Positions 35,073 to 36,715 of a stretch of 37,921 nucleotides of DNA are shown here, piece after piece (within the stretch, counting starts at the first letter, position 1; the number at the start of each line of letters is the position of its first letter). Source of the DNA: a virus (lineage: Duplodnaviria; Heunggongvirae; Uroviricota; Caudoviricetes); the IMG/VR virus record IMGVR_UViG_2713896908_000005; one strand, given 5' to 3'. A program made the translations under genes and the position numbers. The notes beneath the pieces are model-generated. The model was not told the origin of the DNA, searched no databases, and worked only from the letters and a program-made list of their open reading frames with translations.

Positions 35073-35425
35073 AACCGTAGCACGTCGTATGCAAGAACGT
35101 GCTGTGGCAGGTTGGTTAACTTCCGATAGTGCGAGTATTGAAAGGTCTCTTGCCGTTATCGATTTTACGTATTTATTGTATGAGAGGATTTTCACTACCT
35201 CCCACCGACCATCTATGACTGTGTGCTCCTATCTCTAGGGCTGCTATGTGCCAGATGCGGACATACTCAGCAATATAGTGAATAAATTAGTAGGGGCTAG
35301 GTTACAGTAATGAACACATTGAACATTAATACCATTAATTTTCTTCTCTGGTGAGTTTGTTCCACTGCGTCATTTAACCTAGTCCCCATTAATTATTTTT
35401 GGTATTGTCAACTGGAAAATTTGTT

Positions 35426-36214
35426 CTACTTTATTTTTCGCCACATCTTTTCTATTAAGTCAGGATGCAAATATGTCGTTTTATCTTTTGTGATCTTTAT
35501 TGACGTGTTGTTTCTTTTTAACAAAACTCCATGCAGATGATTTTTTCTTTTAAATTCATCCCAAAATTCTTTTTTCACTTTGGATGTAACTGGCCTCTTT
35601 GGAATTAACAAAAAAAACCAAAAGCTATTAAATGCAACCATCCTAACAATATAATTGTTAGGGTTGAGGTTTAAACCACCAATCGATGTGCTTCTTAATA
35701 GATATGGTTCTAAAGGCTCTTCATGTTTACCAGTTTCCAGATTAACCATATTTGCAGAAGTTACAATTAGAAGGGAAAGAATTATACTATCTACATTTTT
35801 GTTTTTATTGCCAGTGATTATGAATGGTATGTATTTTTCTAAAATGACTCTGGCATTATAACCACCATTTGATGCCCTCGCTGAATTATATGATATCTTT
35901 AGAAGTTCACGTAATAATAAATCATATTCATATTCAAATGTTATTTCATTTCCGGGTTTTAAAGGTGTTAGCATCTGATTTTTAAAACAAGTTACGAAAT
36001 CAGCATCTAGTTGCGACAGTATTCCATTATTACACTCAGCGCATACATCCCCAATAACTGGATCGCCTTTAAAATGGTAGTCACTCTTATCAGTCATCGA
36101 TAAAAGTTCAACATTAAAACTTTTAATTATTGCTGAAGGGAAAATATGTTCTTTAGTTAAGTTTGTTGTGCTTTTACAATAAACGCAACTTTTTTTGTTT
36201 TCCATGTTTACCAT
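35426..36214 (-). CDS. uncharacterised 262-aa protein with N-terminal HNH-like Cys/His motif; AT-rich cargo gene next to att site
   Basis: CVYC...KEHIFPS...CAECNN near the N-terminus (CxxC / EH / CxxCN spacing like an HNH nuclease core); C-terminal about 190 aa unassigned; AT-rich; start may be the second ATG (36205). Confidence 0.65.
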   Translation of the reverse strand: MVNMENKKSCVYCKSTTNLTKEHIFPSAIIKSFNVELLSMTDKSDYHFKGDPVIGDVCAECNNGILSQLDADFVTCFKNQMLTPLKPGNEITFEYEYDLLLRELLKISYNSARASNGGYNARVILEKYIPFIITGNKNKNVDSIILSLLIVTSANMVNLETGKHEEPLEPYLLRSTSIGGLNLNPNNYIVRMVAFNSFWFFLLIPKRPVTSKVKKEFWDEFKRKNHLHGVLLKRNNTSIKITKDKTTYLHPDLIEKMWRKIK

Positions 36215-36715
36215 CCAATTAAAATTTATTTAATCAATTTTCGAAGAGTAATCAAACTATTTAGCTTAGTCAATATCTATCTATTGGCCCTGAAGCCTTA
36301 GATGTTATTTGCTAGCGATAACAAACTGTTTGAAAAGGTACGCGCAGATGATAACTACGAGGTTAAGCCTCGACATCCACCTTGAGGTACACAATTGGCT
36401 CATCAAAAGTATGGGACATATTCCGGGCGATCTCAGTATGCTTTTTCCGCTCTTCGCCCATAACAGACATTCACTACAGTTATGGTAGAAGGTATGCATG
36501 CTGGGTGGGGAAAGTATAAAGGAAAAGAAGACCGCTGCGCCGTTTGTCGTCACGTTTATCTTCATTGGTTATGCAAGTCGTAATACAAGGTGGGACAAAA
36601 CTGAGACACATAAGGCCTCGCAATGGCTTGCAAGGCTTTACATGTTTTGATTTGGTGGGACGTGTGAGCGCAGCGTTGATGGGGTAATGCTTTGAATTAG
36701 AAGCGGATTCTTATA

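Follow-up and report, generated by a model that had tools for sequence, protein, structure and literature searches.

Prophage conversion slots and integron cassettes are now recognised as reservoirs of compact defence genes; EcoKMcrA, a type IV methyl-directed restriction enzyme, is the last gene after pin before the end of the cryptic prophage e14. Here, we examined a 37,921-nt stretch of viral DNA (Caudoviricetes; IMG/VR record IMGVR_UViG_2713896908_000005), hereafter the window, in which a minus-strand open reading frame (ORF) at 35426..36214 occupies the same slot. Its product is likely an active HNH nuclease, to judge from its sequence, and a role in defence is reasonably probable; on balance, we lean toward reading it as a stand-alone defence nuclease.

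Like EcoKMcrA, the window gene encodes a single-gene HNH nuclease (predicted here), has no methyltransferase partner, and is prophage cargo. The likeness is one of position and logic only, and we rejected membership of the McrA family. Specifically, hhalign of the family profile against K-12 McrA returned a probability of 0.6%, with 16 columns aligned at the CxxC knuckle only. Further, McrA has its reader domain at the N-terminus and its HNH domain at the C-terminus, whereas this order is reversed in the window protein, which belongs to the HNH_5 subfamily, carries an insertion in its core and has an unrelated putative recognition domain without a known fold; the two genes also lie on opposite strands.

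A second point of comparison is the gtrA-gtrB-gtrV cluster of phages SfV and SfII, which shares with the window gene the phage backbone, the slot (from the tail-fibre genes to attP), the coding strand and, in our reading, the property of serving the lysogen. The gtr products, however, are membrane glycosyltransferases that alter the phage receptor, while the window product is predicted to be a cytoplasmic nuclease.

Third, Sirona and Nemetona are validated single-gene anti-phage integron cassettes of Vibrio cholerae N16961, described as distant His-Me/HNH relatives (bioRxiv 10.1101/2024.07.02.601686). They resemble the present family as single-gene defence cassettes with a remote HNH-like domain, and the Vibrio parahaemolyticus homolog described below is likewise a single-gene integron cassette. 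They are set apart by their reported similarities, which are to lambda NinG and a type II restriction domain and not to HNH_5. Since 90 relatives, whether collected with the window protein or with the V. parahaemolyticus homolog, include no V. cholerae protein, a close relationship is unlikely. The V. parahaemolyticus integron screen of Getz et al. 2025 reportedly covered 57 cassettes of strain RIMD 2210633; our homolog comes from two other assemblies and probably lies outside that set.

An HNH core interrupted by an insertion

The ORF is present as first described, an AT-rich minus-strand gene of 262 aa counted from its first ATG. The initial annotation had noted in its N-terminal part a CxxC...EH...CxxCN arrangement resembling an HNH nuclease core, and both the motif and the core withstood closer analysis. 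HNH_5 (PF14279; profile length 56 positions, cut-off 27.5 bits) was the only credible Pfam match to the window protein and the sole family match in 29 of 34 diverse members. The native protein scored 23.9 bits in a match split in two, the best stretch covering profile positions 1-23. When residues 31-49 were deleted in silico, the two parts merged into a single match over profile positions 1-53 of 56, with a score of 36.7 bits. The spliced cores of four distant relatives scored 27.0-31.2 bits against the same profile, and one relative, P0176, exceeds the cut-off natively at 28.2 bits.

A profile of the spliced cores matched one solved protein, the HNH endonuclease PDB 4h9d (E=0.0035), a minimal single-domain protein of 112 aa. 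The CxxC, (D/E)H and CxxCN elements of the HNH_5 and 4h9d cores align one by one with those of the window family, which differs in an insertion of about 20 residues between the catalytic strands, in an Asp (D56) in place of the central Asn of 4h9d, and in an extra domain of roughly 180 residues. A search of the PDB with the full-length family profile returned spurious cytochrome c matches only.

The AlphaFold2 model (predicted local distance difference test, pLDDT, 86.8; predicted template modelling score, pTM, 0.88) places a beta strand at residues 19-23, a poorly ordered stretch, a second strand at 53-58 and a helix at 59-81. The first half of the core (residues 10-30; 36125..36187, minus strand) corresponds to HNH_5 positions 1-23 and comprises the C10-x2-C13 knuckle and the first strand, ending in E22-H23. 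The insertion of about 19-25 residues between the two strands (residues 31-49; 36068..36124, minus strand) is delimited by the splice result and by a local pLDDT of 57-70. The second half (residues 50-81; 35972..36067, minus strand) contains the second strand with an invariant D56-V57-C58, the helix carrying C61-N62, and an invariant D70. Thus arranged, the N-terminal 80 or so residues are predicted to be an HNH_5-type beta-beta-alpha-metal core with an insertion and a Cys4 zinc site.

Conservation, counted over 147 representatives no more than 50% identical pairwise, excludes a chance occurrence of the motif. H23 was conserved in 142/142 sequences, and C58, C61 and N62 each in 145/145; E or D at position 22 was found in 141/142, D56 in 144/145 (the lone exception being Asn), C10 in 139/140 and C13 in 137/140. 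The catalytic His and Asn thus hold up on alignment. We predict that the two CxxC knuckles, C10/C13 and C58/C61, form a structural zinc site, that E22-H23 provide a metal ligand and the general base, and that N62 is the metal-binding Asn.

A conserved C-terminal domain without a structural relative

The remaining 180 or so residues (82-262; 35429..35971, minus strand) are modelled confidently as helices (97-143), a six-stranded antiparallel sheet (145-205) and a further helix (211-224), packed on the HNH core. This region found no match in PDB, BFVD, Pfam, NCBIfam or PADLOC. It is highly conserved even so: R113 was retained in 148/148 sequences, N110 in 147/148, K106 in 146/148 and R102 in 142/148, and R174, R191 and an NSFWF motif are also conserved. 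The spacing of R102, K106, N110 and R113 puts them on one face of a helix, a basic stripe that we regard as a putative DNA-binding surface. Against orthologs from other mobile elements, dN/dS was 0.06-0.23, in both halves of the ORF alike; the entire ORF is under purifying selection.

Two variations in domain architecture were seen among the relatives. A sub-family of 424-439 aa (P0165, P0176, P0190, P0196, P0217 and P0232, one of them from Paenibacillus) has about 180 extra C-terminal residues without a Pfam match, and in P0237 a YgjP-like metallopeptidase fragment is fused at the N-terminus.

The last gene of an SfV-type prophage

The backbone of the window is of SfV/SfII type, with 97.9% identity to SfV over 82% of window 14500-35072. 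In SfV, gtrV-gtrB-gtrA occupy the minus strand of the interval from the tail-fibre assembly gene to attP, and attP and int come next. Homology of the window to SfV is lost at 32827 and returns at 36591-36766, where the window is 94% identical to the SfV gtrA-int spacer. This SfV-type, attP-derived arm (36591..36767, plus strand; SfV 20467-20643) forms the prophage end, and the homology to E. coli strain 455 also ends at 36766. Within the arm lies a 3' fragment of thrW (tRNA-Thr) at 36716-36767, identified by the tRNA-Thr annotation beneath the matches; ARAGORN found no whole tRNA in the window. On the phage side, the gene is preceded by a Pin-type serine invertase (34482..35072, plus strand; Resolvase, 1e-51, with HTH_7).

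Because pin lies upstream and the SfV attP arm with the thrW fragment lies beyond, the HNH gene is placed, on this reading of the sequence, as the last gene within the prophage; it fills the classical lysogenic-conversion slot and shares its coding strand with gtr. The terminal cargo slot beside an att site, proposed at the outset, is thus borne out by the attP arm, by the gtr slot of SfV and by the gene order of e14 in K-12 (ymfQ-stfP-tfaP-tfaE-stfE-pinE-mcrA-end). The position between Pin and att that had been likened to that of McrA is exact by this order, although mcrA lies on the other strand. We also considered whether the 1.7-kb module around the gene is a separate tandem remnant with a second att; the window contains a single att copy, with the gene to the left of the SfV attP arm, so this was rejected.

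Spread of the gene as single-gene cargo

The gene and both its flanks form a 1.69-kb module (35076..36766) that is 99.3% identical to 14 complete E. coli genomes. In these, the module follows an AbiLi/AbiLii pair (adjacent to the gene in strain 455) where the window has pin, and it occupies the thrW end of another prophage. A smaller cassette, about 1.0-1.07 kb long, comprises the gene with some 200-245 nt of the DNA upstream of it and is found again, at about 80% nucleotide identity, in prophages of Hafnia and Enterobacter: window 35392-36460 is 80.7% identical to the copy in a Hafnia P2-like prophage, and window 35419-36414 is 79.9% identical to the Enterobacter copy. The former lies in the S-V slot, adjoining a DUF4238 protein; the latter lies at the yedK end of prophages with Mu-type baseplates, flanked by umuDC and yedK. 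DUF4238 is a validated single-gene anti-T7 system (PMC9122126). Homology between the HNH family and this neighbour was rejected (hhalign probability 0.6%), despite an 'H-x-x-P...F' stretch in both. Elsewhere, a Morganella copy in a lambdoid prophage has variable cargo on one side and the phage integrase on the other, and a Proteus copy is the last gene before an icd remnant.

Beyond prophages, the V. parahaemolyticus copy is a single-gene integron cassette (locus L013), with the gene at 5688-6455 between attC-like repeats at 5638-5668 and 6551-6581, in an array of at least 19 attC-like repeats that also carries Mrr, ParE/Phd and Shedu-type cassettes. Integron-cassette status holds for this homolog alone, the window copy lying outside any integron. 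In a second V. parahaemolyticus strain, the gene adjoins a TIR protein. A Citrobacter IncFII plasmid carries it in the cargo of a TniA/B/Q transposon, and a Pantoea phage-plasmid has it as cargo. In Saccharospirillum (L039 8001-13825), it lies 74 bp upstream of HamC(DUF3223)-HamA-HamB on the same strand, and in Thioalkalivibrio (L024 10001-14641), it is directly upstream of two same-strand ORFs; the second ORF is a homolog of the HamB helicase of Saccharospirillum. The arrangement upstream of Hachiman-type genes could be a matter of island co-location or could point to a functional link.

Known defence genes thus occur within a few genes of the family in several independent backgrounds (AbiL, DUF4238, TIR, Mrr/Shedu/toxin-antitoxin, Hachiman and AbiE), and the 110 nearest neighbours in 20 species-level loci include AbiE, a dGTPase and Uma2. 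Across 31 loci, all-vs-all BLASTP found no neighbour family common to more than two. A conserved downstream partner in the distant loci was likewise rejected, as BLASTP found none and the two immediate downstream ORFs, compared directly, were unrelated. With no partner conserved beside it, the gene is single-gene cargo of no fewer than five types of prophage, of a Vibrio integron, of a plasmid transposon and of a phage-plasmid.

In E. coli O15:H18 ST69 (L002 4190-5142), the end of a related prophage lacks the gene. Its flanks are the same (the att arm and a remnant of pin), but between them lie 954 bp of different DNA in which the longest ORF does not exceed 88 aa. The pin-att slot is one where cargo turns over.

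Of 5,426 complete E. coli genomes, 14 contain the gene; with its GC content of 0.31, it is of foreign origin and patchily spread. The family as a whole is large. A word-indexed search returned 90 full-length relatives, all annotated as 'hypothetical' or generic 'HNH endonuclease', and an exhaustive profile search returned 1,149 clusters at 50% identity, 707 of them at E<=1e-10. Members are mostly 250-290 aa long, with a subset of 424-439 aa, and range from Proteobacteria to Bacillota (Paenibacillus, Desulfitobacterium), Cyanobacteria and Myxococcota. The window protein had no match in NCBIfam, and a literature search by protein accession and keywords found no paper naming the family. One copy, in Klebsiella oxytoca NBRC 105695 (L019 10001-10787), is 85% identical, has a length of 787 nt that is not a multiple of three and contains five in-frame stops; it is probably a frameshifted pseudogene.

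Proposed function and competing explanations

We propose that the gene is carried as lysogenic-conversion cargo and would be expressed in the lysogen from its own candidate promoter, on the strand opposite the phage late operon. In the enzyme, H23 would activate water while E22 and N62 hold a Mg2+ or Mn2+ ion, leading to a cut in DNA. The C-terminal domain, by way of R102, K106, N110 and R113 together with R174 and R191, would bind DNA and supply the discrimination between self and non-self. The enzyme would act directly on incoming phage or plasmid DNA bearing a feature absent from the host, for instance a modified base or some particular structure. Such a logic would be that of McrA in the same e14 slot, without a common recognition domain. 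We advance this restriction-like, direct recognition tentatively. It is a somewhat stronger possibility, if still short of probable, that the family represents a new, widespread single-gene immune nuclease, in which a previously unseen fold and an interrupted HNH core would distinguish foreign DNA or sense infection without a partner; the module may then have been recruited beside Hachiman, and the C-terminal domain may be a new nucleic-acid or infection sensor. The restriction-like or abortive-infection role raised by the initial annotation draws its support from context, namely from the AbiL, DUF4238, TIR, integron and Hachiman neighbours.

Several observations weigh against a defence nuclease. 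Many neighbours in the 20 loci are ordinary metabolic or housekeeping genes, and the Shewanella copy sits between housekeeping genes. The neighbourhood survey had no matched control set and takes its background from the literature alone, according to which 2% of all E. coli genes have a known defence gene no more than 10 genes away, as against a share of 17% among known defence genes (PMC13092281). PADLOC-DB 2.0 gave no significant match for the window protein at E up to 10; for ten distant relatives, PADLOC likewise gave no significant match, one protein being marginal at E=0.007-0.008. No copy was found by tblastn among 50,697 deposited phage genomes. As to the catalytic core, the native HNH_5 score falls under the Pfam cut-off, and fold searches with the model retrieved no HNH enzymes, the core being small and interrupted. 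Finally, a simple consensus promoter scan did not flag the candidate promoter.

The main rival is an abortive-infection nuclease, inactive in healthy cells, whose C-terminal domain would sense a phage product or the state of infection, freeing the HNH domain to attack the DNA of cell and phage without distinction and so kill the infected cell. Such a role would suit a single-gene nuclease without an immunity or methylase partner, one that adjoins AbiL in E. coli strain 455 and has AbiE, TIR and Hachiman among its neighbours. The model, too, can be read in this sense, given that its compact two-domain fold could be an autoinhibited state and the flexible insertion between the catalytic strands a regulatory element. 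However, the C-terminal domain is conserved from Enterobacterales to Cyanobacteria and Bacillota, with R113, N110 and K106 near-invariant, and a dN/dS of about 0.1-0.2 is unlike that of sensors tracking variable phage proteins. Because this domain is so highly conserved across phyla, which fits a conserved ligand such as DNA better than fast-evolving phage proteins, we prefer direct, restriction-like action and consider abortive infection unlikely.

CxxC-knuckle HNH proteins also include NinG-like and terminase-associated enzymes, and the product might be a nuclease, or a factor binding DNA, in the service of the mobile element and not of host defence, whether as a NinG/Rap-like helper in recombination or repair, a packaging HNH protein or an addiction module. 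The PHROGs database adds matches to families of unknown function only, among them a weak one to phrog_10503 (E=3e-5). Against such a service stand the location of the gene, on the strand opposite the late operon and in the conversion slot by attP, apart from the modules for replication, recombination and packaging, as well as its occurrence in elements of unrelated life cycles and at chromosomal sites without a phage. In none of the loci examined did terminase genes adjoin it. We find this explanation quite improbable.

A selfish, free-standing homing endonuclease, which cuts a specific site in genomes lacking the gene and is copied in by repair, had also been put forward. Like I-HmuI and T4 Mob, the window gene combines an HNH catalytic core with a free-standing place in a phage genome, where it has its own candidate promoter, and the recurrence of the 1-kb cassette at about 80% nucleotide identity in unrelated prophages would agree with such mobility. 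Unlike in those enzymes, there is no common insertion target. In prophages alone, six different flank pairs were found (pin/att, AbiL/att, P2 S/V, umuDC/yedK, tail fibre/int and tail fibre/icd), and because the flanking genes differ in each background, no target gene is shared. The gene also occurs outside phages, in an integron cassette, in the cargo of a transposon and in chromosomal locations, and it has no copy in the deposited phage genomes. Further, a Pfam scan found no NUMOD, IENR, AP2 or HNH_3 modules. The gene-less allele typical of homing was sought and is not matched by the ST69 locus, in which 954 bp of unrelated DNA take the place of a clean empty site. Homing thus appears most improbable.

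Equally remote is a zinc-ribbon protein without catalytic function, perhaps a regulator, whose HNH-like pattern would be structural only: the sub-threshold native score and the fold searches would accord with it, but the positions needed for catalysis alone (H23, E/D22, N62 and D56) are conserved and removal of the insertion carries the protein past the HNH_5 cut-off, and because the catalytic positions are invariant, this possibility, raised initially as a potential refutation, is ruled out as far as the sequence goes.

Should a defence nuclease that restricts phage be the correct reading, the gene would be a one-gene system with a new recognition domain, and the thrW-proximal slot of SfV-type phages would exchange receptor-modifying cargo for nuclease cargo; should the protein be inactive, the gene would be an ordinary HNH moron. 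The family is large (about 1,150 clusters), nameless and absent from the 2023 PADLOC library, and it contains a confidently modelled domain without a solved structural relative. At 0.8 kb, a single gene whose catalytic residues are clear targets for mutation is cheap to test.

Gene boundaries and flanking elements

The stop codon lies at 35426-35428. The true product probably has 259 aa and starts at the second ATG (35426..36205), because a GGATGG Shine-Dalgarno-like motif lies 5 nt 5' of the ATG at 36205, the RefSeq call for the 99%-identical E. coli gene is 780 nt, and the same position is the start in most homologs. The gene has a GC content of 0.309 and a third-position GC content (GC3) of 0.259, compared with 0.531 for window 14500-35072, which holds the prophage structural genes.

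Upstream, a non-coding region (36215..36460, minus strand) belongs to the 1.0-1.07-kb cassette by homology to the Hafnia and Enterobacter copies. Within it, a candidate sigma-70 promoter (36245..36273, minus strand) can be read as TTGACT and TACTCT separated by 17 nt; the pair is conserved in the Enterobacter copy and partly in the Hafnia copy. A small upstream ORF was considered as a partner or antitoxin and rejected, as the 60-aa ORF of Hafnia is not kept in frame in the window or in Enterobacter.

Beyond the stop codon, a 20-nt inverted repeat (35285..35394; 85% complementary, 70-nt spacer) begins after 32 nt, and the homology to the Hafnia copy stops at it, at 35392; the repeat may be a terminator or a cassette boundary. 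Pin lies outside the cassette. An Rfam scan of the gene flanks produced noise and one sub-threshold partial match, to the Shigella small RNA CssrB at 35050-35106 (33.7 bits, cut-off 76). This match overlaps a stretch of about 90 nt right behind the pin stop (35082-35177), which recurs at 78-79% identity in two further places of the E. coli strain 455 locus (L001 5751-5837 and 16655-16750).

Other features of the window

To the right of the att fragment, positions 36768-37921 had no match among the 5,426 complete E. coli genomes. Among them is a direct repeat of 98 nt (37689-37786 and 37824-37921), whose minus strand codes for a proline-rich motif, PPAPxRPAPPPPVLNG. Probably, either the host is not a standard E. 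coli or this segment is another island.

Elsewhere in the window, an AT-rich island at 5000-7000 (GC 0.32-0.38) in the early region contains an ORF (5305..6831, plus strand) for a 508-aa large serine recombinase with Resolvase, Recombinase and Zn_ribbon_recom domains. SfV-type phages use a tyrosine integrase at thrW, so the serine recombinase could represent either an element inserted separately or an additional recombinase. A 427-aa ORF (10274..11557, minus strand; GC about 0.39), on the strand opposite its neighbours, matched nothing in Pfam or PADLOC and could be a further moron. No PADLOC match was found for two small ORFs (13701..14012 and 13984..14388) in an AT-rich island at 13500-14500 (GC 0.32-0.33). 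An ORF of 176 aa (26930..27460, plus strand), in an island of GC 0.336 between the tape-measure and DNA-circularisation genes of the tail module, matched neither Pfam nor PADLOC. Finally, five copies of a 19-nt palindromic repeat, TTTACCTGAATCAGGTAAA, lie at 3073-3186 within the ORF 2633..3652 and look like the iterons of a lambdoid replication origin.

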